This document shows positions 1 through 40,758 of a stretch of DNA of 40,758 bases, piece after piece. The stretch comes from a virus. The stretch is taken from the UHGV virus genome UHGV-0121884; one strand, 5' to 3'. The notes under the pieces are model-generated. The model was not told where the DNA came from and did not search any database. It worked only from the letters and a program-made list of their open reading frames with translations. How positions within the stretch are numbered: position 1 is the first letter of the stretch; each line of letters starts with the position of its first letter. The position numbers and the translations under genes were made by a program.

Positions 1-134
1 TCGTCGCGCCGTTTGGCGATATGACGGTGAAATGCCATCAGCATTATTACATCACTACATTACCGGGCAGGCAGTGGCCAAAAATTGAGGCATTTATTAC
101 TTGGTTAAGAGAACAGGTAAAAACCACTTCATAA
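1..134 (+). CDS. dsdC: 3' end of host LysR-type regulator gene (dsdC-like), partial at window edge
   Basis: Frame open from window edge (codon phase from nt 3) to TAA at 132-134; translation ...VAPFGDMTVKCHQHYYITTLPGRQWPKIEAFITWLREQVKTTS matches my recollection of the E. coli DsdC C-terminus; lies outside the att core at 234-248. Confidence 0.45.
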   Translation, partial: VAPFGDMTVKCHQHYYITTLPGRQWPKIEAFITWLREQVKTTS

Positions 135-321: not shown

Positions 322-522
322 TTACCCATTGGCGCGGCTTAAGAGCTTATTTTTGAATTCACAATGGTCACGATATAACCATCTTGCTCGACCGTGGATA
401 ACTTTGGCTTTTGGCAGGTCGCCGGACTTAATCCGGTCGTAGATGAAGGTTTTACCAAAGCCAGTATCAGCCATGATGAATTTCAAATCAACCAGGGAAT
501 CAGGCTGTAGTTCGTGTTGCAT
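322..522 (-). CDS. AlpA-family HTH protein, putative excisionase (Xis)
   Basis: 66 aa; pattern LVDLKFIMADTGFGKTFIYDRIKSGDLPKAKVIHGRARWLY fits AlpA/Xis winged-HTH signature (TG..x..IY..IK.G.FP..K.G....W); GGAG 9 nt upstream of ATG; first gene inside the prophage end. Confidence 0.55.
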   Translation of the reverse strand: MQHELQPDSLVDLKFIMADTGFGKTFIYDRIKSGDLPKAKVIHGRARWLYRDHCEFKNKLLSRANG

Positions 523-582
523 GAGTGCTATCTCCGAATAGGGAATCGAACCTGCAAATCAGGTAATAAAAAACCGCCATCA

Positions 583-747
583 GGCGGATTGGTGTTCTTT
601 CAGTTCTTCAATTCGAATATTGGTTACGTCTGCATGCGCTATCTGCGCCCATATCATCCAGTGGTTATAGCAGTCGTTGATGTTCTCTGCTTCGATAACC
701 CTGTTGAATGGCTCTCCATTCCATTCACCTGTGACTTGGAAGTGCAT
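583..747 (-). CDS. small hypothetical protein (55 aa)
   Basis: ATG at 747 preceded by GGAG; followed by hairpin CCGCC-ATCAG-GGCGG plus T-run (rho-independent terminator, approx 575-600). Confidence 0.3.
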
Positions 748-804
748 TTATCATCTCCATAAAACAAAACTCGCCGTAGCGAGTTCAGATAAAAGAAATC
801 CGCA

Positions 805-1605
805 TTAAGCGGCGTCGGTGAATTCAAATAAAAAACCGGCTTGCGCCGGCTCTCTCATCTTTCTGTCTACCCATGCTGATATCGATGGCGGGTGCACCTT
901 TTCAATAGCAGCGCGAAGTACAGCTGTACGTGCCAGTTTGTCGGTAATCTCAGGAAATCGCTTCTCTGTCTTCGGTACGTTAACAGCAACATTAGTAGAA
1001 TCCGCACTGGCGAACGGATACATACCAAGAACTCTCACGTCGAGCATTCGAAGACCATGAATTTTCACTTTCAAATTACGATTGATATAAAGTTCAGTGA
1101 AAACTTCATCCATTCTCTGTTCCCACCATTTAGAGCGTATGTGCCTGTGTGGGCCGCAGCATCCAATCGCCACCCATTCAAATTTGCCAGAAAGGCGTAA
1201 AAGACGTTCAATTGATTCGTCGGTATGCCAGACAGGAACCGCTTTTGATTTTAGCCAATCAGGAACACACTCAATCTGCTCGTCGTTTTCTGCCTCTGTC
1301 CCTTCGATAACGTCAGGTATAAGAAACCATTCAATTCTGCTGAACCACTTCCCAACAAAGTCGTAGAATTTTGCTCGTCTCTTACTCCAGTCTACCGGAG
1401 TGCCTTTCTTTAATGCTTTCATCCAGTCGCTAAAAGCGCCGTTATCAAGGCGTATATCACAAGGGAACATGGCAATCTTTTTCATCTGCTCTGGTCTGGC
1501 AAATGAAACAAAAGCCCCACCATCACGGTAAAGGGCTTTAATCAGCATATCTGTAGGGGCATGCTCATCCCCCCATATTGGGCTGCCGTGAAAGTGGATG
1601 GTCAT
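805..1605 (-). CDS. hypothetical early-left accessory protein (266 aa); possible TGT/DpdA-like fold (speculative)
   Basis: Long ORF co-oriented with early-left operon; motif order LDNGAFS .. IPDVIEG .. VAIGCCG .. IHGLRMLD loosely resembles tRNA-guanine transglycosylase TDSGGFQ .. IIQG .. AVGGL .. MGVG; no zinc-site cysteines seen. Confidence 0.45.
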   Translation of the reverse strand: MTIHFHGSPIWGDEHAPTDMLIKALYRDGGAFVSFARPEQMKKIAMFPCDIRLDNGAFSDWMKALKKGTPVDWSKRRAKFYDFVGKWFSRIEWFLIPDVIEGTEAENDEQIECVPDWLKSKAVPVWHTDESIERLLRLSGKFEWVAIGCCGPHRHIRSKWWEQRMDEVFTELYINRNLKVKIHGLRMLDVRVLGMYPFASADSTNVAVNVPKTEKRFPEITDKLARTAVLRAAIEKVHPPSISAWVDRKMREPAQAGFLFEFTDAA

Positions 1606-1647
1606 ATTATCCCCATATAAAAGAAATCCCCGCGAGTGCGAGGATTG

Positions 1648-1932
1648 TTATTTATTGCCGATATTTACCTTTATCGCGTAAACCTTTACCGGTTTATCGC
1701 CGAAGTGCGGATGTGTGATTGTCTTGATTTCATACCCTTCATACGGGACGTCAATTCTGCGGCTGGAATCGTCGCGCTTCGGATATCCCTTTGTGATAAT
1801 CAGGCGGTCATACTCGCGGAACATAATTCGCTTATTCCAGTAGTCATTACACAGGCGATACTCTTCCGTTTTCTCTCCGCGAATCATGGCATCGAAGTAT
1901 TCACCTTTAACGGCAAGTTGCAGGTTAGCCAC
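1648..1932 (-). CDS. ASCH (PUA-like) domain protein
   Basis: 94 aa; N-terminal AVKGEYFDAMIRGEKTEEYR matches ASCH GxKxxExR signature; ends 43 nt upstream of the 805..1605 gene. Confidence 0.5.
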   Translation of the reverse strand: MANLQLAVKGEYFDAMIRGEKTEEYRLCNDYWNKRIMFREYDRLIITKGYPKRDDSSRRIDVPYEGYEIKTITHPHFGDKPVKVYAIKVNIGNK

Positions 1933-2212
1933 GACCTTCCTCCTTTGGCTTGTGAATTTGTATCGTCATGCCGCTTTGAGTGGTGACTACAACGACAGAA
2001 CCAGGCTGAAGACTGTTAAGATTGAATGCTTCGTAAAACGAAGCCAAGGCCAGCGCTTTTTTATTCTTTCGGTTCCACCAACGCCATCCATTGCTACAGG
2101 CTACACTGACAATCCACTGTCCACTCCTGTAAGCCATATAAAACCAGATGAGCAAAACCTGAATGAATGCTATCCAGTCAATAATCGTATATTTCGCGAA
2201 GGAGACCATCAA
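1925..2212 (-). CDS. hypothetical protein with hydrophobic N-terminal segment
   Basis: 95 aa ORF overlapping neighbours by a few nt (operon-like packing); IIDWIAFIQVLLIWFYMAY looks like a TM helix. Confidence 0.35.
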   Translation of the reverse strand: MMVSFAKYTIIDWIAFIQVLLIWFYMAYRSGQWIVSVACSNGWRWWNRKNKKALALASFYEAFNLNSLQPGSVVVVTTQSGMTIQIHKPKEEGRG

Positions 2213-2706
2213 TTAACCTCCTGCGGCGGTTCCGGTAGAGGCATCCAGTACAAGGCGTTCCCTAACCACGATAAAGTGCCGTCGCTCAACTCCACGTATT
2301 CCCCTTGTACCTGTCCTGCCATATACTCGCCGTGCTTTGAATAAATTAAAATCCAATCATCTTGAGCGGGCATTCGCTCACTACAGCTTATCCAACCATC
2401 CGGAGTTACCGGATAGTTGCCCGACAGCTCGTTCAACTTGTAAGTTTGGCTTACAGGTTCGGCTTCCAGTTCTGCTATGCGCTTTTTTGCTGCTTCCAGC
2501 TCAACACGCAGCCTCCCAACCGTTAGCGCAATATCCTCGTTCTCCTGGTCGCGGCGTTTTATGTATTGCTGGCTTTTATCCAGTTCATACAGCAACGTTT
2601 CTGCGTAAATATAAAGTTCCTGTTTTTCACGATCCGCAGGATCGCTGTAATGCTCCTGCATGTATTGAAATTCTTCACGCAGTGCCTGATAGTCAATCTT
2701 GCTCAC
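2209..2706 (-). CDS. DUF551 / Ea22-like protein
   Basis: C-terminal W...WMPLPEPP motif typical of DUF551; coiled-coil centre; start set at GTG 2706 (AGGAGG 6 nt upstream) rather than ORF-track GTG 2727. Confidence 0.5.
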
Positions 2707-2870
2707 TGGTCGCCTCCTTTGCGCCACATCGCATTCAGATGTTTGTTTTGATTCACTGATGGAAACGAGTTTCGCTTAAGTAATTCCTCTCTCGATGGCA
2801 TTGGCTTTACGCGTTGGCGAATAATCATTTCTGCTGGAAGAATGCCGGGATTGTATGCAAGTCCTCTCAT
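2703..2870 (-). CDS. small hypothetical protein (55 aa)
   Basis: ATG overlaps stop of upstream gene (ATGA); below ORF-track size cutoff; fills otherwise empty gap. Confidence 0.3.
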
Positions 2871-3148
2871 GATTTACTCTCCACGAACTGGTCAATAGCC
2901 ATGCTAAGTGACATACCTAAAGTTTCGATATGCTGCTGAATATCCTGTAGCGTCTGCGCCTGAGATAACAGGATTTCACGGTTGCATAACTCTTTGACCA
3001 GATGCTCAAACTTGCTGTAATAACCGATACGGCTTAGTGTTTCTTTCCCTGCATTCTCACCTTCTTTGATAATTCCTCTTTCATTAAGAATCAGGTCGTG
3101 TTTTGTTCCAGTAATAACGTATTTACCGAGGTCGATGTTTAGCTTCAT
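2867..3148 (-). CDS. hypothetical protein (93 aa)
   Basis: ORF in early-left operon orientation, tightly packed with neighbours. Confidence 0.4.
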
Positions 3149-3164
3149 TGTTAATTACTCCATG

Positions 3165-3479
3165 TTAATTTATTTGTATGCCTGCTCTTTTTTCATCGAG
3201 TTTTTTTAGCTTGTATCGCATAGCCCTTACCGAATAAATTGAGCGGCAGGTTGCAATTGCTATTTCTTCTGCGGAGAACTTACCGAAAAGTGATACTTCG
3301 GCTCTTGTCCATCGTCTTCCACGAAGTCGGCTAACAATGTCAGCGCCAATCCTTGTTGCTTTCGCCATTACTGCTTTTTCAGTCCTTTCCAGTTTTTCAG
3401 CGATAACTCCAACTGGCATTGTCGCCGCTACTTCGCGCAAGAAATCGACTTCCCATTTCTCCCATGGAGTCTTTTTCAT
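3165..3479 (-). CDS. hypothetical protein with two HTH-like repeats
   Basis: 104 aa; internal duplication W..E..FL..A...IAEKL / W..AEV.LFGKFSAEEIA. Confidence 0.4.
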   Translation of the reverse strand: MKKTPWEKWEVDFLREVAATMPVGVIAEKLERTEKAVMAKATRIGADIVSRLRGRRWTRAEVSLFGKFSAEEIAIATCRSIYSVRAMRYKLKKLDEKRAGIQIN

Positions 3480-3490
3480 AGGCGATACCG

Positions 3491-3973
3491 TTATTTGATA
3501 AGAAGTGAAGGTTTCCCAACTTTGAGTTGAGCGCCGGGGATATTTATTCCTGCTTTTAGTTGGTGTTTGATTGCCAGTTTGTCGGCTTTAATTGTCGTTT
3601 CAAACTCAACGTATTCAGGAGGAAGGGCGCTTGAGTCGATGATTTCTACAGTTTCTGACGGTTTGCGGATTGTTACCTGGTGAATACCTGCTCGAATCTT
3701 TTTCTTGCCAACCATTTCAAGCGATGACGCTATATACGCCATAATGCTGTCAATCTTATTTTGAATTACTGCGGCTCGCTCATTTAGTGACTGTGCCTCT
3801 TCCTTGAGGCGTTCAGCATAACCAGATTCATTTTTAATAATGGCAAGAAGTTGCTCTATTTTATCGGTAAATTCTCCTTCCATGCCTTCTATTGTGTCAG
3901 CAATCATCTCTGGCTCTAAATCTGAATCTATCAGCTTTGCGTATTCATTGGCAATTTCATACAGTTTGCTCAC
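3491..3973 (-). CDS. coiled-coil protein, Gp157-like, RecT-associated
   Basis: Immediately downstream of recT; start set at GTG 3973 with GGAGG 6 nt upstream (ORF track uses TTG 3979); family call is by resemblance only. Confidence 0.4.
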   Translation of the reverse strand: MSKLYEIANEYAKLIDSDLEPEMIADTIEGMEGEFTDKIEQLLAIIKNESGYAERLKEEAQSLNERAAVIQNKIDSIMAYIASSLEMVGKKKIRAGIHQVTIRKPSETVEIIDSSALPPEYVEFETTIKADKLAIKHQLKAGINIPGAQLKVGKPSLLIK

Positions 3974-5419: not shown

Positions 5420-5494
5420 AGGATGCTCCTTCTGTTTGATTGCATAACGAAAACGCCTCGAGTGAAGCGTTATTGGTATGCGGTAAAGCCGCGC

Positions 5495-5863
5495 TCAGGC
5501 GGCTTTGATAGTCATATCATCTGAATCAAATATTCCAGATGTGTCGATATCGGTAATTCTTATTCCTTCGCTACCATCCATTGGAGGCCATCCTTCCTGA
5601 CCATTTCCATCATTCCAGTCGAACTCACACACAACACCATATGCATTTAAGTCGCTTGAAATTGCTATAAGCAGAGCATGTTGCGCTAGCATGATTAATA
5701 CAGCATTTAATACAGAGCCGTGTTTTTTGAGTCTGTATTCAGAGTCTGACCAGAAATTATTAATCTGGTGAAGTTTTTCCTCTGTCATTACGTCATGGTC
5801 GATTTCAATTTCTATTGATGCTTTCCAGTCGTAATCAATGATGTATTTTTTGATGTTTGACAT
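5495..5863 (-). CDS. Ea10-like protein (122 aa)
   Basis: Same length (369 nt) and same 182-nt spacing to ral as lambda ea10. Confidence 0.45.
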   Translation of the reverse strand: MSNIKKYIIDYDWKASIEIEIDHDVMTEEKLHQINNFWSDSEYRLKKHGSVLNAVLIMLAQHALLIAISSDLNAYGVVCEFDWNDGNGQEGWPPMDGSEGIRITDIDTSGIFDSDDMTIKAA

Positions 5864-6045: not shown

Positions 6046-6246
6046 TCAGGCAGCCTTGTTGTTCTGTTTACCAAGTTCTCTGGCAATCATTGCCGTCGTT
6101 CGTATTGCCCATTTATCGACATATTTCCCATCTTCCATTACAGGAAACATTTCTTCAGGCTTAACCATGCATTCCGATTGCAGCTTGCATCCATTGCATC
6201 GTTTGAATTGTCCACACCATTGATTTTTATCAATAGTCGTAGTCAT
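6046..6246 (-). CDS. ral: Ral restriction-alleviation protein
   Basis: 66 aa, same length as lambda ral; overlapped by a 28-codon ORF by 17 nt exactly as lambda ral/orf28; sequence MTTTIDKNQWCGQFKRCNGC... matches my recollection of Ral. Confidence 0.55.
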   Translation of the reverse strand: MTTTIDKNQWCGQFKRCNGCKLQSECMVKPEEMFPVMEDGKYVDKWAIRTTAMIARELGKQNNKAA

Positions 6247-6524: not shown

Positions 6525-7064
6525 ATGAGTAACTGGTGGCAGGAACTGTTACGTTTCTTCCTGCGTGGTCTTACGCTACAACAGTTAATTCATATGCTTA
6601 TTATTTTAATTGCCTTGATAATAATCACCCCAGCATCAATTAAAGAGTGGGTAGATATAAGGAACCCCGAAATACTTCCAGATCACTGGATGTATTACGC
6701 AATGCTTTTGTGTATCAGTTATGTTCTGAACAGGGTGATGGAGTTTATATTTCTGGCATCTTCAGACAGATATAAAAAATATCTCAGTAAGAGAGATGAG
6801 GCCAAAGTAATTGTGGAGACTGAGCGCCTGTTCAATTCTCTGGGTATTCAGGAAAAAGAGGTTTTAGCATTTGCTGTTATGGCAAATAACAAAATCGTAC
6901 TTAAGCACGGCGATCCGGTCGCTTTATCTCTTATGAGAAAAGGCCTTCTCCATCGCTCAGGTGTGACTTACAGCGCGTCAGGTAAAGAGAAATTTGTTAT
7001 ACCTGACGTCTGGTTCCATGAGTGTTATATGCGCTTTGCTGGTAAAGCTGATGAGCTAATTTAG
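6525..7064 (+). CDS. sieB: SieB-like superinfection exclusion / abortive infection membrane protein
   Basis: 180 aa from ATG 6525 (GGAGAT 8 nt upstream); N-terminal TM helix LIHMLIILIALIIITPA; opposite strand to the early-left operon between ral and N, as sieB in lambda/P22; upstream ORF-track extension judged non-coding. Confidence 0.5.
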   Translation: MSNWWQELLRFFLRGLTLQQLIHMLIILIALIIITPASIKEWVDIRNPEILPDHWMYYAMLLCISYVLNRVMEFIFLASSDRYKKYLSKRDEAKVIVETERLFNSLGIQEKEVLAFAVMANNKIVLKHGDPVALSLMRKGLLHRSGVTYSASGKEKFVIPDVWFHECYMRFAGKADELI

Positions 7065-7807: not shown

Positions 7808-8467
7808 TTAACTAAATGTCTCTTCAGGCCACTGGCTGGCGATAACTTTCCCTACTACGGAACAGCTATCATTGCATGGGATCATTGGATATTGCGGGTT
7901 TAGTGGTTGTAGGAACACCTGACCGCTATCCCTGATCAGTTTCTTGAAGGTAAACTCGTCACCACCAAGTCTGGCTATGCAGAAATCACCTGGCTCAACA
8001 GTCTGCTCAGGGTCAACGAGAATTAACATCCCGTCAGGAAAGCTTGGCTTGGATCCTGTTGGTGCGGTCATGGAATTACCTTCAACTTCAAGCCAAAACG
8101 CACAATCACTGGCTTTTTTGGTTGTGCTGACCCATCTCTCCGCATCGCCTTTGGTAAAGGTTCTAAGCTCAGGCGAGAACATCCCGGCCTGAACATGAGA
8201 AAAAACAGGGTACTCATATTGTTTTTTTAACGGGGCAGATGAGTATTCGCCAACAGGTGAAAATGTACCGTCGTGGTTGAATGAGACGTTATCAATACCA
8301 AGGTATTTAAACACCACACCAATCTCGTCAAGAGATGGATGACGAGATCCGCGCAACCAGTGACCAATTCCACCCTGCGTCATACCAAGCTCTTCAGCTA
8401 ACTTCTCTTGAGTTATGCCGAGTTCTTTCATTCTGGATCTAGCCAGTTCATACCATTTCATTTTCAT
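7808..8467 (-). CDS. c2: CI/C2-type prophage repressor (HTH + S24 LexA-like autopeptidase)
   Basis: [25 protein letters not shown]; Ala-Gly cleavage site in [11 protein letters not shown]; S24 motifs GNSMTAP and FKKL; start taken at MKMKW (8467) rather than ORF-track upstream start. Confidence 0.8.
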
Positions 8468-8578
8468 ATCCTTATTATTACGCTCTGTACTAAAACCATC
8501 CATGCACAAGATGTATTTTTTGTTTGCATTCCAAAAGTACATATCGTATTATTGTTTCATGGTTACTATGGAGGGCAT

Positions 8579-8794
8579 ATGAGCAACCTACGAAAATATC
8601 GAGAGTCACTGAATATCTCTCAAACAACACTTGCTAAGGCGGTTGGATGCACACAGGGAGCTATCGGACATTGGGAATCTGGTCGTCGCTTCCCAGACCT
8701 TAAAACATGCCGTGCTCTTGTTGCGTGCCTAAACAAGTTAGGCGCAAAAGTCAGTCTTGATGACGTGTTCCCACCGGAACACAAAGCCGCTTAA
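8579..8794 (+). CDS. cro: Cro-like HTH repressor
   Basis: 71 aa, divergent from c2 across a 111-bp operator/promoter region; HTH LNISQTTLAKAVGCTQGAIGHWESG; GGAGGG SD. Confidence 0.65.
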   Translation: MSNLRKYRESLNISQTTLAKAVGCTQGAIGHWESGRRFPDLKTCRALVACLNKLGAKVSLDDVFPPEHKAA

Positions 8795-8903
8795 TAAGCG
8801 GATCCGCTCTTTATCAATCTGCACCGCCGACAACGCGGTAACTAATTAATCACTCATCGAAAGATGAGTATTAGTGATTATTTACCTATGGAAATAGTAA
8901 GAA

Positions 8904-9203
8904 ATGGAACAAACAAGTTACAGCAAACTATCACAGCGCGACGTTGATCGCGCAGAAACAGATTTACTCATCAACCTGTCAACGCTTACCCAGCGCGGTC
9001 TGGCAAAGATGATTGGATGTCATGAATCGAAGATAAGCAGAACGGACTGGAGATTTATTGCTTCGGTCTTGTGTGCTTTCGGAATGGCATCAGACATCAG
9101 TCCGATTAGCAGGGCTTTTAAGTATGCGCTTGATGGACTCACCAATAAAAAACGCCCGGTGTGCAAGACCGAGCGTTCTGAACAAATCCAGATGGAATTC
9201 TGA
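8904..9203 (+). CDS. cII: CII-family transcriptional activator (P22 c1 homolog)
   Basis: 99 aa; C-terminus LTNKKRP....ERSEQIQMEF matches lambda CII C-terminus. Confidence 0.75.
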   Translation: MEQTSYSKLSQRDVDRAETDLLINLSTLTQRGLAKMIGCHESKISRTDWRFIASVLCAFGMASDISPISRAFKYALDGLTNKKRPVCKTERSEQIQMEF

Positions 9204-9235: not shown

Positions 9236-9400
9236 ATGACAAAACGTCGTAAGAAATACCAGGAAAAAGAAGAGATTCGACACCCTGATTCACCTGAGGG
9301 ATTAGTGGTAGCCGCAGCAAATAACAGGGCGTTCGCAGAGCGCCTTGTTGGTGTTTACAGACTAGCCAAAGCAGGAGTGAAACATGGGCGTCGTTAAGTT
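9236..9400 (+). CDS. small basic hypothetical protein (54 aa)
   Basis: ATG 9236 with AGGAG 5 nt upstream; below ORF-track cutoff; between cII and replication genes. Confidence 0.3.
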
Positions 9401-9446
9401 AGCTGATTACAGGCATAACCCTGTACAACATCAGGAGGCATCCAGT

Positions 9447-10274
9447 ATGGGGTATGTCTCTATACACCGCCAGTTTATGGACAGCAGGCTCTATAAGGAC
9501 TCTCAGGCAGTACATCTTTGGCTTCACTTAATCCTCAAGGCTAATCACGAATCTACTGTCGTCAATACGGATATCGGTCCGATAACTGTTGATCGCGGTC
9601 AGATGATAACTGGACGCCCGTCGCTGGTCAGAGAAACATTCATCCCCGACAACAAAGTTCGGAGCTTATTACGGACTTTTGAGTCGAAAGGTATGCTTAA
9701 TATTTGCTCGATGGGGAAGAAATTTAGCCTGTTTACAATCGTTAAATATGACGATTTTCAGGCAAAAAATTGTCCAACGGTTGTCCAACGGTTGTCCAAC
9801 GCAAACACCAGTAATGGCGCGGCTCTCAGCGGAGATTGTCCAACGGTTGTCCAACGGTTGTCCATAAACAATAATATAAATAATATCTCTAATACTGACG
9901 TATTAGAGAGTGCCACAGCAGACAAAAAGTCTGACAAGAAAAAACCTTCCGTTAGCTGTCAGGATGTTGTCGATGCTTACCACGAAATCCTTCCTGAAGC
10001 GCCAAGAATCCGCGCACTGAATGACAAGCGTAAAAACCAGATCCGAACGTTCTGGCGCAAAGCCGGAGTGATAACCCGCCAGCTTGACGGGCATGGGTTC
10101 ACGATGCAGGACTGGAGAAATTATTTGAGCTACGTTGGCGAAAATTGCCGATGGATGTTCGAAGAGCGCACAAACCATCAACGCGGAACCGTCTGGCACA
10201 AAAAGGGATTTGATTTCCTGCTTAACGATAATACCTACCTGAAAGTTCGTGAGGGTGAACACGATGACCGATAA
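9447..10274 (+). CDS. replication initiator (lambda O / P22 gene 18 type) containing ori
   Basis: Origin iterons and AT-rich tract lie inside the coding sequence as in lambdoid O genes; start set at ATG 9447 (AGGAGG 8 nt upstream); ORF-track start 9384 is an alternative. Confidence 0.65.
   Translation: MGYVSIHRQFMDSRLYKDSQAVHLWLHLILKANHESTVVNTDIGPITVDRGQMITGRPSLVRETFIPDNKVRSLLRTFESKGMLNICSMGKKFSLFTIVKYDDFQAKNCPTVVQRLSNANTSNGAALSGDCPTVVQRLSINNNINNISNTDVLESATADKKSDKKKPSVSCQDVVDAYHEILPEAPRIRALNDKRKNQIRTFWRKAGVITRQLDGHGFTMQDWRNYLSYVGENCRWMFEERTNHQRGTVWHKKGFDFLLNDNTYLKVREGEHDDR
9770..9867. repeat. replication origin iterons: 5-6 direct copies of TTGTCCAACGG in two clusters, followed by an AT-rich tract (9868-9900)
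   Basis: Copies at 9770, 9781, 9792, 9836, 9847 and partial at 9858; then acaataatataaataatatctctaatactgacg. Confidence 0.65.
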
Positions 10275-32450: not shown

Positions 32451-33311
32451 TTACTTGTCTGGTGAGTGTTTATAACGGGCCTGTGAAAGGCTGTAGTTAG
32501 CAAATTTCTCAAGGCGCTCAGCAATTTCATCTAGTCGCTTAAGACGTTCGTCAAAGGGTGTATTCTTGTCAAATTTTGCATTTGACCAAAAATCTTGGCT
32601 AACCTTGTGTGCTTCTTCAACCAGTTTCTCTACTTCGCTATGCGGCATTGGAGAGATAAGTTTTTCCCTCTTTATTCGGAACTGAGAATGAATAGCCACG
32701 CCAACAACCTCGATAAAATCAGGTTGGAACATAGGGTATAAAGGGTTAAGTGGCTTAAGGTAGATTTGGCGCTGATCCAGTATAAGCTGCTTAAATGTAG
32801 CCTCAGAATCATCATTCAGCACACACATCACAAAGTCACCAGAAACAGCCTCTAGCGATGAATCGAAAGTTACGATTGTTCCAGGAGGAAAGCTAATCCC
32901 ATCACCGGAAGACATGGAGTCTCCTTGTATTTCAACGGCAAAACAGTATTCATTGGCTTCAGGAGGGGCTGGAATAAAGTCCTTTATAGCAGCAGTCTTT
33001 AGTAAATCATCTAGCGATTCAAATCTTGCCTGTACGTGTGTTAGCACAGGAATCTCGCGCACAGTAACAGTTCTCTTGACACTGCTAACGTCAGGGCCAT
33101 CTCCTTTCCCTTGCGTAAGCCATTCAGTGGTAGTTCCCAATGCAGCCGCAAGGTTTTGAAGTGCCTTTTCTCTTGGCTTGGCTTCCCCGCCCTCGTAAGC
33201 AGCGATCTGTCTGGATACCACGCCTACTTTCTTAGCAAGCTCGGATTGAGTCAAACCGATGGAGTTGCGCGCTATGGCAACTCGTTTAGAAAAAGAATCA
33301 TCAAAACTCAT
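32451..33311 (-). CDS. CI/LexA-like HTH-S24 protein with Ala-Arg at the cleavage position and a C-terminal extension
   Basis: 286 aa; XRE HTH (IGLTQSELAKKVGVVSRQIAAYE), S24 motifs GDSMS and TFKQL; region PVLTHVQARFESL aligns to C2 [13 protein letters not shown] but has AR instead of AG; about 70 extra helical residues at C-terminus. Confidence 0.6.
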   Translation of the reverse strand: MSFDDSFSKRVAIARNSIGLTQSELAKKVGVVSRQIAAYEGGEAKPREKALQNLAAALGTTTEWLTQGKGDGPDVSSVKRTVTVREIPVLTHVQARFESLDDLLKTAAIKDFIPAPPEANEYCFAVEIQGDSMSSGDGISFPPGTIVTFDSSLEAVSGDFVMCVLNDDSEATFKQLILDQRQIYLKPLNPLYPMFQPDFIEVVGVAIHSQFRIKREKLISPMPHSEVEKLVEEAHKVSQDFWSNAKFDKNTPFDERLKRLDEIAERLEKFANYSLSQARYKHSPDK

Positions 33312-33408
33312 ATTTGCACCTTAAAAAATCATTGACTCAATATTAGTCTGGTACTAACCTAATGTTGAAGATTGAGCAATTGAATAACAAAACTACATGA
33401 GGTGAATA

Positions 33409-33582
33409 ATGGAACAGAAGAAAAAAGATATCAAGCCTATCTCCTACCGCCCAAGTGCTGAAGTGCGTGAGTTTTTGGAAAGTAACGCAGCTAAAAGCTA
33501 CCGCTCGACTCAGGGGATGATCGATTTCTTTATGGCTAAGGTCATGGATATGGAGAAGAAAGGTGAAATTATCATCCATTAA
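33409..33582 (+). CDS. small ribbon-helix-helix-like protein (57 aa)
   Basis: ATG 33409 with GAGGTG upstream; PISYRPSAEVREFLESNA resembles Arc/Mnt-type beta-strand/helix; divergent from the HTH-S24 gene. Confidence 0.35.
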   Translation: MEQKKKDIKPISYRPSAEVREFLESNAAKSYRSTQGMIDFFMAKVMDMEKKGEIIIH

Positions 33583-34294
33583 AAACGTTGAAGCCCAACG
33601 GTGGCTAGACCGTCAGGCTTCGGTATCGAACAAATCCTACGACGGAAATATCGATATGAATATTGTAGCAAAATCAGATTACAACTTCCAAGGATTCACC
33701 TTTAACCCAGTAACAGAGGGCGGGTCTATCTGGTTTACCTCCACCGAACTAGCTAAGGCTCTCGGCTATAAAAAAACTGATGCCATCAGCCAAATTTATG
33801 CCCGTAATGCTGATGAGTTTTCCGACTCAATGTCATTGACCCTCAATATGAGTGTCAACGGGATAAACAATAGCTTACGTAACAAATCGGTCAGAGTTTA
33901 CTCACTCCGAGGCGCTCACTTGGTGGCGATGTTTGCTTCTACGCCCAAGGCCAAAGAGTTCCGCCGTTGGGTGCTGGATATTTTGGATCGTGAAGCCACG
34001 GATTCACCGATCGCCAAACAGTTCACAGATGATGAGTTAATCAGCCTTTGCTATCTCCAGCTCTGGATGGAAAAGAGCCAGCGGGTTAGCCAGCAACTTT
34101 ACCCGGCAATGAAACAGGCTAAGTCAGAATACGCAGGGATGCTATACGACATCGCCCACGACATTCGTTATATGACTGTGGAAACCAAGAAGATCCTGCT
34201 TCGTGAAGTACAGGAACTGGATAACAGCAATATTGTCGTGAAGCATGCGCAGCCAATGTTGGCAATGCTTCGCGGTGAGGAATGGATTCACTGA
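33563..34294 (+). CDS. Bro-N domain antirepressor-like protein
   Basis: IWFTSTELAKALGYKKTDAISQIYARN...VRVYSLRGAHLVAMFASTPKAKEFRRWV fits Bro-N; start uncertain (GTG 33563 or ATG 33656). Confidence 0.5.
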   Translation: MKLSSIKNVEAQRWLDRQASVSNKSYDGNIDMNIVAKSDYNFQGFTFNPVTEGGSIWFTSTELAKALGYKKTDAISQIYARNADEFSDSMSLTLNMSVNGINNSLRNKSVRVYSLRGAHLVAMFASTPKAKEFRRWVLDILDREATDSPIAKQFTDDELISLCYLQLWMEKSQRVSQQLYPAMKQAKSEYAGMLYDIAHDIRYMTVETKKILLREVQELDNSNIVVKHAQPMLAMLRGEEWIH

Positions 34295-34378
34295 TTGACG
34301 CACAGGACGGTGCAAAAAGAAAAGCCGACAGTTACGAGCTACCGGCTTTCATTGAAACTTGTCATAAGGGTCCAACCA

Positions 34379-35152
34379 ATGACTTTATTAAATTTAGCAG
34401 TTCATGAGCCAAATGTCGATCCCCAGCCGCTTCCAGTGATTGAATGGGAGGGTTTACGTGTTGTTACGACTGAAACGCTGGCTTCAGGTTATGGTACGGA
34501 TGAGGCTAACATTCGGAAAAACCTGTCACGCAATGCTGGACGCTTCATTGAAGGAATTCACATCTTCACTATTAAAGGCCAAGAGTTGAAGAATTTGCGA
34601 GTGACTAATAGTCACGCACAAATTTCGAACAAAGCTCGTTCAATTGTTTTGTGGACGGAGAAGGGCGCAGCGCGGATGTCGAAAATTGTCGATACAGACG
34701 AAGCATGGTCTTTCTTCGAACGGTTGGAAAATGCTTACTTCCGTCCCTTGGTAAAAAGCATCCTACCGCAGACATACGAGCAGGCTCTGGAAGATTTACT
34801 TCTAAAGGTCAAAGAGAATCGGCTTCTTGAGCAACAGCGCGACAGAGCGGTAAAAGAAAAGTTGTGGATTGCAGCAAAACGCGAAGCTACAGCAATGGCT
34901 ACCGCATCAGCAGCCGTCCGCGCCAAAAACAAATTAGCTGAACGGGTAGGGGAAGGAAAGAACTACGCCGCCATTATCCCGGTAGAAAAGAAGCTGGGGC
35001 AGAAATTCAAATGGCAGCCTCTTCGCAAGTGGTGCCGGGAGAATGACGTCACCCCACATGATGTCAACGACCCACGCTTTGGCTCAGTTAAGTCATGGCC
35101 TCGCGATGCTTGGCTTGCTGTGTATGGCGTAGATCTTCGAAAACTTTTTTAA
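34379..35152 (+). CDS. ORF6N/KilAC-type antirepressor-like protein
   Basis: N-terminal LPVIEWEGLRVVTTETLASGYGTDEANIRKNLSRNAGRFIEGIHIF fits ORF6N domain; start set at ATG 34379 (ORF track uses TTG 34295). Confidence 0.5.
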   Translation: MTLLNLAVHEPNVDPQPLPVIEWEGLRVVTTETLASGYGTDEANIRKNLSRNAGRFIEGIHIFTIKGQELKNLRVTNSHAQISNKARSIVLWTEKGAARMSKIVDTDEAWSFFERLENAYFRPLVKSILPQTYEQALEDLLLKVKENRLLEQQRDRAVKEKLWIAAKREATAMATASAAVRAKNKLAERVGEGKNYAAIIPVEKKLGQKFKWQPLRKWCRENDVTPHDVNDPRFGSVKSWPRDAWLAVYGVDLRKLF

Positions 35153-35177
35153 CCAAAAGGATAGATTATTGCTAATC

Positions 35178-35203
35178 AAACCCGCTTAATCGCGGGTTTT
35201 TTA
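35178..35203. terminator. bidirectional rho-independent terminator between convergent genes
   Basis: AAACCCGC-TTAATC-GCGGGTTT flanked by A/T runs on both sides. Confidence 0.5.
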
Positions 35204-35227
35204 TAAGGAGTATTCATGATTTACCCA

Positions 35228-35764
35228 TCAAACAACCCACCAGTTTGCCTGATTGGATGCCAGCCTTGCGGTTTTTATGGAATTAATTATGCCATGCTCA
35301 AGAGCCTTGTTAGCATCCAAAATGGTCGAGTCTGCTATCAGGGATGCCCACCTAATATGGGTTCCGATGTCGATATTGAACGTCTCAACGAAGCGATCAA
35401 GATCGTTATCGAGGCATTTCCCGTACTCTCTCAATCTGGCATGGTCGGCGGCTGGGGAGGCAAAGCACCATAATAGAGGATGTAACAGGAATCTTGATAA
35501 TGGGTTTGCGAAACGTTCTGAGCCAGCCAGGAAAACGATATTAGCTATGGATTCAACATTGCTTATGTTGTGAGTTCTAACGGTAACAGGGAGTGACTTA
35601 AGAAAGTTATACGCAGTAAAGCCAGCGGCAGTTTCCCCTCCCTGACTTGATATATGGATATTTAATTCAGTTGCGCCTTGAGATAATGCGGTGAGACAGT
35701 GGTTCTGAAGTTGCCCAACAGTGGCAGTGTTAACGGGGCATAAGAAATGAATTGTGTGCAGCAT
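35228..35764 (-). CDS. ClpP-fold serine protease homolog (178 aa), translationally coupled to mnt
   Basis: Aligns to ClpP core: ISSQGGETAAGFTAYNFL vs INSPGGVITAGMSIYDTM; ESIANIVFLAGSERFANPLSRFLLHPL vs [29 protein letters not shown] (candidate catalytic Ser and His retained); start ATG overlaps mnt stop (TAATG). Confidence 0.6.
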   Translation of the reverse strand: MLHTIHFLCPVNTATVGQLQNHCLTALSQGATELNIHISSQGGETAAGFTAYNFLKSLPVTVRTHNISNVESIANIVFLAGSERFANPLSRFLLHPLLWCFASPAADHARLREYGKCLDNDLDRFVETFNIDIGTHIRWASLIADSTILDANKALEHGIINSIKTARLASNQANWWVV

Positions 35765-36018
35765 TATTTATCATCCTTGCCATAAATCTTTTTAAGTGTC
35801 TCAAACACAACGGCCTTGAACTGCTCTGCTTGCTGATCAGCCAAGCGTTCAGCTTCGTCTCGATAGCCTGCAATCGGTGATGGCTTTGAGAGAGCATCCT
35901 GAACGATTTGTAATAACTCAGAGTTCATTGACCTTCCGTTAGCCTCTGCTCTTAATTTCAATTTTTCTCTTACTTCCAAAGGCATACGGAAGTTAAAGTG
36001 CGGATCGTTTCTAGCCAT
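35764..36018 (-). CDS. mnt: Mnt repressor (ribbon-helix-helix)
   Basis: 84 aa; MARNDPHFNFRMPLEVREKLKLRAEANGRSMNSELLQIVQDALSKPSP closely matches P22 Mnt. Confidence 0.85.
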   Translation of the reverse strand: MARNDPHFNFRMPLEVREKLKLRAEANGRSMNSELLQIVQDALSKPSPIAGYRDEAERLADQQAEQFKAVVFETLKKIYGKDDK

Positions 36019-36548: not shown

Positions 36549-37472
36549 ATGACGAGTGTAGCAATTGCAGAACATACAATCAACGTTCCATTCCACGGAA
36601 CAAATCTCTTTTTGGTCAGCATTAACAATGAACCTTACGTTCCTATGAAACCCGTTGTAGAAGGCATGGGTATGGTTTGGGCTGCTCAATTTGTTAAATT
36701 AAAACAGAGATTTGTCAAAGGTATTTCGGAAATCGAAATACCTTCTGCTGGCGGTAAACAGTTAATGATATGCCTTGCCTTTCGTAAGTTTGCGGCTTGG
36801 CTTTCAAGCATTCAGCCAAACAAAGTCCGTCCTGAAATCCGCGACAAGGTAATCCAGTATCAGGAAGAGTGTGACGATGTGCTATACGAGTACTGGACTA
36901 AAGGTCATGTAGTTAACCCACGCAAAGCTAAAAAGGCGTTGCCGGGTAAAATCACCACTGAACAGCAGGAAGCCATTAAACAACTCGTCATGAGTCGCGG
37001 TCAGTCTCTGCCAAAAGAAAAACAGGCTAAGGCGATGATCACCATGTGGTCCTCACTGAAATCCCATTTTGGATGTTCGTACAAAGAAATCAGTGAGGAG
37101 CAGTTCACCGAAGCACTGTCACTTGCAGCTCGAGTTCCACTTGAAGGTGAGTTCATTGGCAAACAAGAAGAGTTACCAGCGCCAAAACTGGATATTAACT
37201 TCCCGATTTCATGGTTTGCTGAAAATGCACCTTACGCCATTATCAGGCAGCAATGCGGTGATACTGTTGCTCTTGACCGCAGCGCACTCGTTGAATGCAG
37301 TCCGGCGTATAAACTAATCAATATTCTGACAAAAGCGGGGTATGACGTTTCAGCAGTAAGAGCTGAACTAAAAGCACTTCGCCATTTAATGGCTGAGCAA
37401 AGCTGGGCACTTAAAGAGATAGCTTCATTCGCAGCGATACGTGATAGAGCGTGCCACTCAATAAAACTTTAA
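36549..37472 (+). CDS. ant: antirepressor Ant
   Basis: 307 aa downstream of arc as in P22 immI; N-terminal AntA-like region NVPFHGTNLFLVSINNEPYVPMKPVVEGMGMVW. Confidence 0.65.
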   Translation: MTSVAIAEHTINVPFHGTNLFLVSINNEPYVPMKPVVEGMGMVWAAQFVKLKQRFVKGISEIEIPSAGGKQLMICLAFRKFAAWLSSIQPNKVRPEIRDKVIQYQEECDDVLYEYWTKGHVVNPRKAKKALPGKITTEQQEAIKQLVMSRGQSLPKEKQAKAMITMWSSLKSHFGCSYKEISEEQFTEALSLAARVPLEGEFIGKQEELPAPKLDINFPISWFAENAPYAIIRQQCGDTVALDRSALVECSPAYKLINILTKAGYDVSAVRAELKALRHLMAEQSWALKEIASFAAIRDRACHSIKL

Positions 37473-37594: not shown

Positions 37595-40540
37595 ATGACA
37601 GACATTACAGCCAATGTGATTGTATCGATGCCTTCGCAACTCTTCACTATGGCGCGTTCTTTTAAAGCCGTAGCTAATGGCAAAATTTATATCGGTAAAA
37701 TTGATACTGACCCTGTAAATCCTGAAAACCAGATTCAGGCTTATGTGGAGAACGAAGACGGTTCTCACGTTCCTGTTTCTCAACCAATCATCATTAACGC
37801 TGCTGGATATCCTGTATATAACGGACAGATTGCCAAATTCGTTACCGTGCAAGGCCATTCTATGGCTGTTTATGATGCGTATGGTGCGCAGCAGTTCTAT
37901 TTTCCTAATGTGCTGAAGTATGACCCAGATCAACTACGGCAGCAATTAGAAGACCCAGATGGAGCGAATAAATACCCAAAACTTCAGATAGCAAGATGGA
38001 GAGACAGTTATGATGTAAGAGGTTGGGGGGCTATTGGTGATGGTGTTCATGATGATACATCAGCTCTATCAGAATTACTTTCTGTTGCAACAGGTGGTGA
38101 AAAGATAGATGGGCGAGGGCTTACTTTTAAAGTATCAACTCTTCCAGATGTCAGTCGATTTAAAAATGCTCGTTTTTTATTTGAGAGAATACCGGGTCAG
38201 CCTCTTTTTTATGCTTCTGAAGATTTTATCCAGGGAGAGTTATTTAAAATTACAGATACACCGTGGTACAACGCCTGGACGCAGGATAAAACGTTTGTAT
38301 ATGACAATGTCATCTATGCGCCTTTTATGGCTGGAGACCGCCATGGTGTAAATAACCTCCATGTTGCATGGGTTCGCTCAGGAGATGACGGGAAGACCTG
38401 GACAACGCCGGAATGGCTTACAGATTTACATGAAAACTATCCCACAGTTAACTATCACTGCATGAGTATGGGGGTTGTCAGAAATCGCCTTTTTGCTGTA
38501 ATTGAGACGCGGACCGTGAGAGGAAATAAACTGCAGGTTGCAGAGTTGTGGGATCGCCCAATGAGTCGCAGCCTTCGCGTTTATGGTGGTATAACGAAAG
38601 CAGCAAATCAGCAAGTCGCTTATATTCGCATTACTGATCACGGATTATTTGCTGGTGATTTTGTCAACTTCTCAAACTCTGGTGTTACAGATGTTACCGG
38701 GAATATGACGGTGACTACTGTTATTGATAAAAATACCTTTACAGTTACGACGCAAAATACCCAGGATGTGGATCAGAATAACGAGGGTAGATACTGGAGT
38801 TTTGGCACATCATTTCACTCGTCACCATGGAGAAAAACCAGTCTTGGAACTATTCCTTCTTTTGTTGACGGAAGCACTCCTGTTACTGAGATTCACAGTT
38901 TTGCGACGATTAGCGATAACAGTTTTGCTGTTGGCTACCATAATGGTGATATTGGTCCACGCGAGCTTGGGATACTCTATTTCTCTGATGCTTTCGGTTC
39001 TCCTGGTAGCTTTGTTCGCAGACGCATACCTGCAGAATATGAGGCGAATGCATCTGAGCCATGTGTAAAATATTATGATGGCATTCTGTATCTGACGACC
39101 AGGGGGACATTAAGTACTCAACCCGGTAGTTCATTGCACAGAAGCTCTGATTTAGGTACATCATGGAATTCTCTTCGCTTCCCAAATAATGTTCATCACT
39201 CAAACCTTCCTTTTGCCAAAGTTGGCGATGAGCTGGTTATTTTTGGCAGTGAGCGCGCATTTGGTGAGTGGGAAGGAGGAGAACCTGATAACCGTTATGC
39301 AGGAAATTATCCAAGAACATTTATGACCAGAGTTAACGTCAATGAGTGGAGTCTGGATAATGTAGAGTGGGTTAATGTTACTGATCAGATTTATCAGGGC
39401 GGAATAGTTAACTCTGCGGTTGGTGTTGGTTCAGTTTGTATCAAAGACAACTGGCTGTACTACATTTTCGGTGGGGAAGATTTTCTAAACCCATGGAGCA
39501 TAGGGGATAACAACAGAAAATATCCTTATGTTCACGATGGTCACCCGGCTGATTTGTATTGTTTCAGGGTGAAAATTAAACAGGAAGAATTTGTTTCAAG
39601 GGATTTTGTCTACGGAGCCACTCCTAACAGAACGCTTCCTACTTTTATGTCGACGTCAGGCGTGAGGACGGTTCCTGTACCCGTTGATTTCACAGATGAT
39701 GTTGCCGTCCAGTCACTGACTGTCCATGCAGGTACATCAGGACAAGTTCGCGCGGAAGTCAAACTTGAGGGTAATTACGCCATTATTGCGAAGAAAGTAC
39801 CGTCTGATGATGTTACCGCTCAGAGATTAATCGTTAGCGGCGGTGAAACAACGTCTTCAGCAGATGGTGCAATGATAACGTTGCATGGTTCCGGAAGCAG
39901 TACTCCACGTCGCGCGGTATATAACGCACTCGAACATCTTTTTGAGAACGGAGATGTTAAACCTTATCTTGATAATGTAAATGCTCTTGGTGGTCCGGGA
40001 AACAGGTTCTCGACAGTTTATCTTGGCTCCAATCCTGTGGTTACCAGTGACGGAACATTAAAGACAGAGCCGGTCTCTCCTGACGAAGCATTGCTGGATG
40101 CCTGGGGTGACGTCAGGTATATCGCTTATAAATGGCTGAACGCTGTCGCTATAAAGGGGGAAGAAGGGGCGAGGATACATCATGGTGTAATCGCGCAGCA
40201 ACTTCGTGATGTTCTTATTTCTCACGGACTCATGGAAGAAGAAAGCACAACATGCCGCTATGCCTTTCTTTGCTATGACGATTATCCCGCAGTATATGAT
40301 GACGTCATTACTGGCCAAAGGGAAATGCCGCTGACTGATAATGACGGGAGCATCATTGTTGATGAGGATGATAATCCAGTGATGGTAATAGAAGACATCA
40401 TTGAGCGCGTTGAAATAACGCCAGCAGGATCTAGATGGGGGGTCAGACCTGATCTCTTATTCTATATCGAGGCGGCATGGCAGCGCAGAGAAATAGAAAG
40501 AATAAAAGCTAGGTTAGACTTAATAGAAGGGAAGCACTAA
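37595..40540 (+). CDS. tailspike: P22-type head-binding domain fused to endosialidase (endo-N-acetylneuraminidase) with C-terminal intramolecular chaperone domain
   Basis: 981 aa; N-terminus [57 protein letters not shown] matches P22 gp9 head-binding domain; C-terminal 164 aa (from Ser818, motif SDGTLK) matches K1-phage endosialidase chaperone domain; GGAG SD. Confidence 0.85.
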
Positions 40541-40693
40541 ATGTTTCGTTGGCGTCAAAAATATGAACTGCTCACATAAAGAAGTAAGTACATTGGCAAA
40601 AAACATTGACGTCAACGAAATTAAATATAAAAATTTAAATGCTTTTTAATGACAAGAAAAGTAACTAGTGGTAAAATAACGTAGGATACTAAC

Positions 40694-40758
40694 ATGTCAA
40701 GACTCAAGACTCAAGACTCAAGACTCAAGACTCAAGACTCAAGACTCAAGACTCAAGA
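40694..40758 (+). CDS. neuO: 5' end of neuO-like polysialic acid O-acetyltransferase gene (partial, runs off window)
   Basis: ATG 40694 with AGGA 7 nt upstream, immediately followed by AAGACTC heptad repeats encoding (SRLKTQD)n, the known neuO 5' architecture; acetyltransferase body not in window. Confidence 0.6.
   Translation, partial: MSRLKTQDSRLKTQDSRLKTQ
40697..40758. repeat. tandem heptanucleotide repeat (TCAAGAC / AAGACTC), at least 8 full copies, truncated by window end
   Basis: Perfect copies at 40697, 40704, 40711, 40718, 40725, 40732, 40739, 40746 plus partial ninth copy. Confidence 0.9.

Follow-up and report, generated by a model that had tools for sequence, protein, structure and literature searches.

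A phase-variable heptanucleotide tract at the start of neuO in a CUS-3-like prophage of Escherichia coli

The window analysed here is a stretch of 40,758 nt, one strand of the virus genome UHGV-0121884, and its last 65 nt (40694-40758) form the start of neuO, carried by a CUS-3-like (P22-like, Lederbergvirus) prophage at argW beside dsdC and opening with the poly-psi phase switch; a probability of about 97% is assigned to this reading. The locus is already known, since the structure, enzymology, population distribution, and phenotypes of neuO have all been published. The initial annotation, which had been made from the letters alone and had identified a neuO-like phase-variable repeat in a P22-like prophage, is supported as correct by the comparisons presented below. 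The features at the end of the window are as follows.

40694-40758, plus strand: 5' fragment of neuO, comprising the ATG, the bases TC, and the tract, and encoding M-S-(RLKTQDS)n (sequence; PGAP CDS 40694-41533 in strain GN06667)
40699-40758, plus strand: poly(psi) heptanucleotide tract, (AAGACTC)x8 + AAGA (sequence, repeat finder, CUS-3 repeat_region annotation)
40683-40686, plus strand: AGGA Shine-Dalgarno-like motif, 7 nt 5' of the ATG at 40694 (sequence reading)

By sequence reading, the start codon of neuO (ATG, 40694-40696) is followed by two bases, TC, and AAGACTC units run from 40699. Eight perfect units occupy 40699-40754, and the final AAGA (40755-40758) opens a ninth unit that is cut by the end of the window; the earlier description of an ORF that starts at 40694 and immediately enters at least eight perfect AAGACTC repeats continuing past the edge is therefore exact. 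The DNA unit is a heptanucleotide, three of which encode one RLKTQDS protein heptad, and the word "heptad" used for the DNA repeat in that description was imprecise. Tandem Repeats Finder returned the tract with a period of 7, 8.9 copies, 100% matches, and a score of 124, making it the top-scoring tandem array in the window. A three-unit AAGACTC probe allowing at most two mismatches matched only this tract in the window, with 0.00 matches expected from 100 dinucleotide-preserving shuffles. A start codon upstream of the ATG at 40694 is excluded because a TAG lies in the same frame at 40682-40684. The region between the preceding tailspike gene and neuO contained the following features.

40541-40693, plus strand: tailspike-neuO intergenic region of 153 nt, AT-rich, presumed regulatory region of neuO (sequence, scan)
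40606-40634, plus strand: promoter-like TTGACG-17-AAAAAT, 9/12 (consensus match only)
40649-40677, plus strand: promoter-like ATGACA-17-TAAAAT with a TG extended -10, 10/12 (consensus match only)

The 153-nt spacer showed 0-1 mismatches to the window across the 20 loci compared (CUS-3 was left out of the scoring), and a scan of 40541-40693 detected no terminator-like site. Both candidate promoters are sigma-70-like, and transcription starting from the one at 40649-40677 would leave nearly no leader ahead of the Shine-Dalgarno-like motif. The consensus scan also returned a promoter-like match on the minus strand that overlaps the start of the neuO tract. No mapped neuO promoter is reported in PMC9659370 or PMC8653822, and the two plus-strand sites therefore stay consensus matches. 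Promoter-like hexamers close upstream of the ATG, together with the minus-strand match over the tract start, are what might be expected if the ATG at 40694 were not a functional start and the repeats served as a 5' leader or regulatory spacer, their count tuning transcription and not frame. Such a role is exceedingly improbable and was rejected, given that AGGA stands 7 nt ahead of the ATG with an in-frame stop just upstream, that a full-length ORF occurs exactly and only where the tract preserves the frame, and that the RLKTQDS heptads encoded by the tract belong to a crystallised and assayed protein, published constructs of which already express the M-S-(RLKTQDS)n N-terminus (PMC3046976). 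The tract is thus read as the translated 5' end of neuO.

The last 959 nt of the window showed 99.2% identity to phage CUS-3 (CP000711, host E. coli RS218) and 99.8% identity to phage phiv205-1 (MN340231, APEC DE205B), and among 5426 complete E. coli genomes, 194 matched this region, in every case chromosomally. In the CUS-3 record, the corresponding spot, between siaK1 and int, is labelled "neuO, poly(psi) domain" with 19 copies of AAGACTC. Four complete genomes matched both window ends at 100% identity, each spanning exactly 40,758 nt from one end to the other. Base-by-base comparison over the 40,758 nt gave 0 mismatches to E. coli CU37RT-2, 0 to GN06667, and 2 to B2.3, in which the tract, followed past the window edge, contained 35, 27, and 52 units, respectively. 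Downstream of the tract, the three genomes showed 0-1 mismatches in 2,450 nt covering the neuO body, intS, and tRNA-Arg; CU37RT-2 and GN06667 had 0 substitutions between them across the 2,450 nt 3' of the tract, and B2.3 carried 3 substitutions in total (window plus downstream). According to the PGAP annotation of the identical genomes, the order past the edge is the rest of neuO, intS, tRNA-Arg (argW), and yfdC. neuO is located between the endosialidase tailspike gene (37595-40540) and the integrase gene, and intS followed neuO in every extended locus.

Because the window ends within the tract, the total unit number, the ON/OFF state, and the gene body are taken from these identical genomes and are not read in the window itself. 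An acetyltransferase body had been predicted past the edge, and it is not absent: the identical genomes contain a 214-codon body after the tract. With the body outside the window, the source copy might be pictured as a decayed remnant, with a deletion or an insertion sequence standing where an intact body should follow the tract. CUS-3-like prophages are prone to decay, as in strain CE10, which has a truncated neuO (PMC9659370), and IS insertions were found in the tailspike gene at some loci. A remnant is nevertheless very unlikely and was rejected: an intact 214-codon body, intS, and argW are kept in 4/4 genomes that match both ends at 100%, and only 0-2 substitutions separate the window from the three that were compared along its whole length. 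The neuO body is kept in 21/21 loci, and PGAP marks no gene of the identical prophage copies as a pseudogene. The source copy is accordingly very probably an intact neuO. It could derive from GN06667 (27 units, ON), from CU37RT-2 (35 units, OFF), or from some other strain. The window opens inside dsdC and ends inside the neuO tract. Its end in a perfect repeat, which measures 189 or 245 nt in the zero-mismatch genomes, would fit a short-read contig break, and a break inside the tract makes a phase call from such assemblies impossible.

The relation between unit number and reading frame was examined in 21 records (19 E. coli chromosomes, CUS-3, and phiv205-1), which were top BLAST hits that include near-duplicates and do not form a random sample. 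Perfect tracts of 10-52 units were found in 20/21 loci, and the tract of the remaining locus (L006) was interrupted. In every locus, the tract was followed by a 214-codon open frame beginning with FS(I/V)DDNGSGN, the DNA of the neuO body after the tract reading GTTTTCC(A/G)TTGATGATAATGG..., and the two other frames stopped 3 and 17 codons past the tract. Among the perfect tracts, a full-length ORF of 251-293 aa, read from the ATG, occurred only at unit counts divisible by 3 (15, 18, 27, 30, and 33), and a truncated ORF was found at counts of 10, 14, 16, 17, 19, 20, 31, 34, 35, and 52. Ten of the 21 loci were in frame. GN06667, with 27 units, contains a 279-aa ORF and is ON, whereas CU37RT-2 (35 units) and B2.3 (52 units) are truncated and OFF. 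The interrupted tract of L006 (NZ_CP160121.1, strain 729_270514_x_12) occupies 3400-3624 of that locus (225 nt, ~32 units) and consists of 12 perfect units, a degenerate 22-nt block (AAGATCTCGAGACTCAAGTTGC), and 17 perfect units. It preserves the frame and yields a 291-aa ORF, which PGAP nevertheless calls a pseudogene; the 22-nt block may have arisen in assembly, or it may be genuine and serve to stabilise the tract. The proposed rule, by which the frame is kept at multiples of three and at no other count, held in the 21 loci, applying to the perfect tracts, with the interrupted one in frame as well.

Furthermore, this locus is mis-annotated in public records. In every OFF allele, PGAP calls the same 111-aa "acyltransferase" (WP_011478229.1) from an internal ATG of the neuO body (5455-5790 in locus L002, 5574-5909 in L004, and equivalents elsewhere) and sets no frameshift or phase-variable flag, and the phiv205-1 record labels its ON neuO as "general stress protein". 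The 111-aa call in OFF alleles is spurious, and together with the label in the phage record it offers a lesson for annotation. As to the window itself, it can be labelled as a CUS-3-like prophage that ends in a hypervariable repeat, and its ON/OFF state is therefore not callable.

The tract is a hypervariable site against an invariant prophage background, since 27, 35, and 52 units occurred in prophages that are 0-2 substitutions from the window over 40.7 kb. Two poultry isolates, probably sisters to judge by their names and genome sizes, contained 19 units (L005, OFF) and an interrupted tract of ~32 units (L006), and GN06667 and GN05476, apparently one clone, both contained 27 units. Published data document a similar variability. 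A 38-unit OFF strain gave rise to 39-unit ON colonies after four passages (PMC8653822), and fragment analysis of strain MS7163 showed 93% at 21 units with 20- and 22-unit minorities (PMC13001214). Across 64 complete genomes, the tract ranged from 3 to 53 units and 65.6% were OFF (PMC13001214), and natural neuO copy numbers of 2-93 have been reported (PMC3046976). The repeat number is thus not invariant, as the phase-variable reading had implied, in view of the 27, 35, and 52 units in near-identical prophages and the published passage from 38 to 39 (PMC8653822).

Repeat counts from public assemblies may carry assembly errors. On this basis, the length differences could be assembly artefacts and the tract a fixed low-complexity coding segment that performs no switch; the degenerate block in the L006 tract resembles a consensus error, and the window may itself end here owing to an assembler break at the repeat. 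However, clonal length changes have been demonstrated by Sanger sequencing, fragment analysis, and colony screening (PMC13001214, PMC8653822), and heterogeneity was noted during NeuO protein expression (PMC3046976). GN06667 and GN05476 independently contained 27 units, and the span of 10-52 units far exceeds typical consensus error. The artefact explanation was rejected because length change has been shown experimentally in clonal populations (PMC13001214, PMC8653822), and it retains next to no probability beside a tract that changes in length. Given 27, 35, and 52 units among prophages with 0-2 substitutions, it is conceivable, if doubtful, that short-term change in tract length proceeds mostly by large jumps of 8-25 units (e.g., by unequal recombination between units) or, alternatively, by very many +/-1 steps that far outpace point mutation, and that length would then be selected for its rheostat effect on activity in a non-ST95 (O16:H6) background. 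If true, this would be a refinement of the known mechanism and not a new system.

The predicted protein was consistent with the identity of the gene. Residues 38-279 of the 279-aa ON allele of GN06667 matched PDB 3JQY, "Polysialic acid O-acetyltransferase" (NeuO with four heptads), at an E-value of 2.9e-160 with two conservative differences; the NeuO body is ~99% identical to the crystallised NeuO. A Pfam Hexapep repeat was detected in the ON protein, and the next matches after 3JQY were meningococcal OatWY (2WLC, 6.6e-31), followed by galactoside and maltose O-acetyltransferases. The gene had been called neuO-like from the repeats, and this call agrees with the 99.2% identity to the annotated neuO poly(psi) of CUS-3 and with the match of the allele from a zero-mismatch genome to 3JQY. 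In the published description, the neuO tract opens two nucleotides past the start codon, only multiples of 3 are ON, and each three units encode one RLKTQDS (PMC3046976); the anatomy at the window end agrees with it in every particular and thereby corresponds to the definition of poly-psi. Catalytic efficiency and activity rise with heptad number (PMC3046976). It has further been reported that slipped-strand mispairing is the source of length change, that O-acetylation depends on acetyl-CoA and acts on polysialic acid chains of at least 14 residues, that this modification protects against lytic K1 phage and neutrophils and raises serum sensitivity, and that DsdC gives transcriptional input to neuO (PMC13001214, PMC9659370, PMC3046976, PMC8653822). 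Judged by sequence similarity, the product of the gene at the window end is predicted to O-acetylate alpha-2,8 polysialic acid with an ON/OFF phenotype.

In the proposed mechanism, slipped-strand mispairing in replication would lead to the gain or loss of AAGACTC units. Each 7-nt unit shifts the frame, and only unit counts divisible by 3 would therefore be ON, joining the ATG to the 214-codon body of a left-handed beta-helix acetyltransferase. In phase OFF, the open frame would continue past the tract for only 3 codons where n mod 3 = 1 and for 17 codons where n mod 3 = 2. In phase ON, one RLKTQDS heptad would be added per three units, and the tract would act as both switch and rheostat. The enzyme would acetylate the K1 capsule, which is the receptor of the prophage's own endosialidase tailspike, and capsule acetylation would in turn alter susceptibility to K1 phages and host immunity. 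A prophage that modifies the receptor of its own tailspike would represent a form of superinfection exclusion, and a role of neuO in superinfection exclusion has also been proposed in PMC13001214.

The gene immediately upstream of the spacer encodes the tailspike.

37595-40540, plus strand: endosialidase tailspike gene (siaK1 homologue), 981 codons (ORF listing, Pfam, PDB, CUS-3 annotation)

The stop codon of this ORF is the TAA at 40538-40540. Its Pfam domains include a P22 Head_binding domain at residues 1-113 (6.9e-66), End_N_terminal, End_beta_propel (1.4e-232), End_beta_barrel, End_tail_spike (7.4e-78), and a C-terminal Peptidase_S74 intramolecular chaperone. For the protein, E = 0 was obtained against the PDB endosialidases 3GVL and 1V0E (endoNF), with further matches to tailspike N-termini of P22, Sf6, and the CUS-3 type. 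The endosialidase tailspike that the initial annotation had placed upstream of the repeats is accordingly confirmed by four endosialidase domains (Pfam), by 3GVL and 1V0E at E = 0, and by the P22 head-binding domain, and the P22-like character of the prophage is borne out by nearest phages that belong to Lederbergvirus and by PGAP calls for P22 coat, gp4, gp10, ejection proteins, portal, and terminase. As annotated by PGAP, the identical copies are complete P22-like prophages. They have genes for recombination, nin genes, immunity of the cI/cro/cII type, a DnaB-like helicase, a lysis cassette, and terminase, together with the P22-like virion module (portal, P22 coat, gp4, gp10, ejection proteins), an immI region that holds Arc and antirepressors, and the tailspike. 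A neighbour of the tailspike gene, 36549-37472, contained P22_AR_N (Pfam), the N-terminal domain of the P22 antirepressor. The K1 label was found in the records of several related hosts, namely FN39xxxx and APEC E19035 O2:K1:H5.

In several avian-pathogenic strains, the tailspike gene was broken by IS66- or IS3-family insertions (503-3241 in loci L010, L011, and L021, and 1-3241 in L014), with neuO and intS intact. An IS-broken tailspike gene beside an intact neuO agrees with a published proposal by which neuO is kept in a decaying prophage (PMC9659370).

Other regions of the prophage also contained genes of immunity and exclusion. The main immunity region is located at 7808-9203, and an accessory region on the immI side at 32451-36018. 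The latter contained a second HTH and Peptidase_S24 LexA/CI-like protein (32451-33311, minus strand), an ORF6N protein, a P22AR C-terminal protein, two Arc-family genes, and a ClpP-like protease (35228-35764, minus strand; Pfam CLP_protease, 2.2e-11); a phage-borne ClpP adjoining Arc is unusual. A SieB superinfection-exclusion gene (6525-7064; Pfam SieB, 1.5e-19) adjoins a Ral antirestriction gene (6046-6246), and the two together indicate that the prophage carries at least two anti-superinfection functions besides neuO. In addition, two clusters of about three perfect 11-mers each (TTGTCCAACGG) were found at 9770-9801 and 9836-9864, 34 nt apart and followed by an AT-rich stretch. The clusters are located inside an ORF (9384-10274) that had no Pfam hit and stands directly upstream of the DnaB-like helicase gene, and they look like lambdoid origin iterons within an O-like initiator gene.

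The opposite end of the window marks the site of integration.

1-134, plus strand: 3' end of dsdC, host chromosomal flank (PGAP annotation of identical genomes)
542-557, plus strand: 16-nt att core GGAATCGAACCTGCAA, which marks the far (attR) end of the prophage (identical to the CUS-3 att core and to part of argW)

The same att core recurs inside argW, past intS, in the identical genomes, and the prophage is thus integrated at tRNA-Arg argW between yfdC and dsdC through a 16-nt att core. No tRNA gene was detected in the window, argW being located past its edge. The 32-nt 3' end of argW (AATGGTGTCCCCTGCAG followed by GAATCGAACCTGCAA) was also found split within the first part of the window, the first 17 nt at 232-248 and the next 16 nt, corresponding to the CUS-3 att core, at 542-557. 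Between these two pieces lies torI (322-522, minus strand), whose product is the excisionase partner of the KplE1 IntS-type integrase. Its position places torI outside the attR that was used to delimit the CUS-3 genome, and the piece at 232-248 could be either the true end of the prophage or a KplE1-like remnant in tandem.

The neuO contingency locus of prophage CUS-3 in E. coli K1 RS218 was reportedly first described by Deszo et al. in 2005 (PNAS 102:5564), and King et al. (2007, J Bacteriol 189:6447) is said to be the paper on the CUS-3 prophage. The window shares with CUS-3 the AAGACTC unit, a tract that opens 2 nt past the ATG, a location between the endosialidase tailspike gene and the integrase gene, and integration at argW beside dsdC. 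In contrast, the second codon in CUS-3 of RS218 is TTA (Leu; ATG TTA), whereas that of the window is TCA (Ser; ATG TCA), and only 47% of the first 25 kb of the window aligned with CUS-3, at ~95% identity. Such mosaicism relative to CUS-3 is ordinary for lambdoid and P22-like phages, which shuffle modules. The RS218 tract contains 19 units and is OFF, whereas the tract of the window is cut by the edge. The best overall phage match was phiv205-1, which covered 58% of the first 25 kb. This CUS-3-like Lederbergvirus carries a neuO with 18 repeats (ON, 258 aa) adjoining intS and attL, and differs in that its tailspike gene is broken by an IS66-family transposase.

Contingency loci of Neisseria and Haemophilus, such as the tetranucleotide repeats of lic1 or mod, are likewise based on an intragenic repeat whose unit is not divisible by 3 and on a slipped-strand switch of translation. 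neuO differs from these loci in its 7-nt unit, in a tract that is translated into a functional N-terminal extension tuning activity, and in being borne by a prophage. At the protein level, OatWY of N. meningitidis W-135/Y (PDB 2WLC) shares the left-handed beta-helix hexapeptide acyltransferase fold and, NeuO itself aside, no solved homologue is closer. On the other hand, the OatWY match (E 6.6e-31) covered only NeuO residues 88-271, downstream of the heptads, and the poly-psi domain is unique to NeuO (PMC3046976).

The neuO system has been established since 2005 and is still under study (PMC13001214, PMC9659370, PMC8653822). It constitutes a prophage-borne switch that alters the K1 capsule, a major virulence factor of E. 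coli causing neonatal meningitis and urosepsis, and that affects phage susceptibility, killing by neutrophils and serum, and Siglec recognition.
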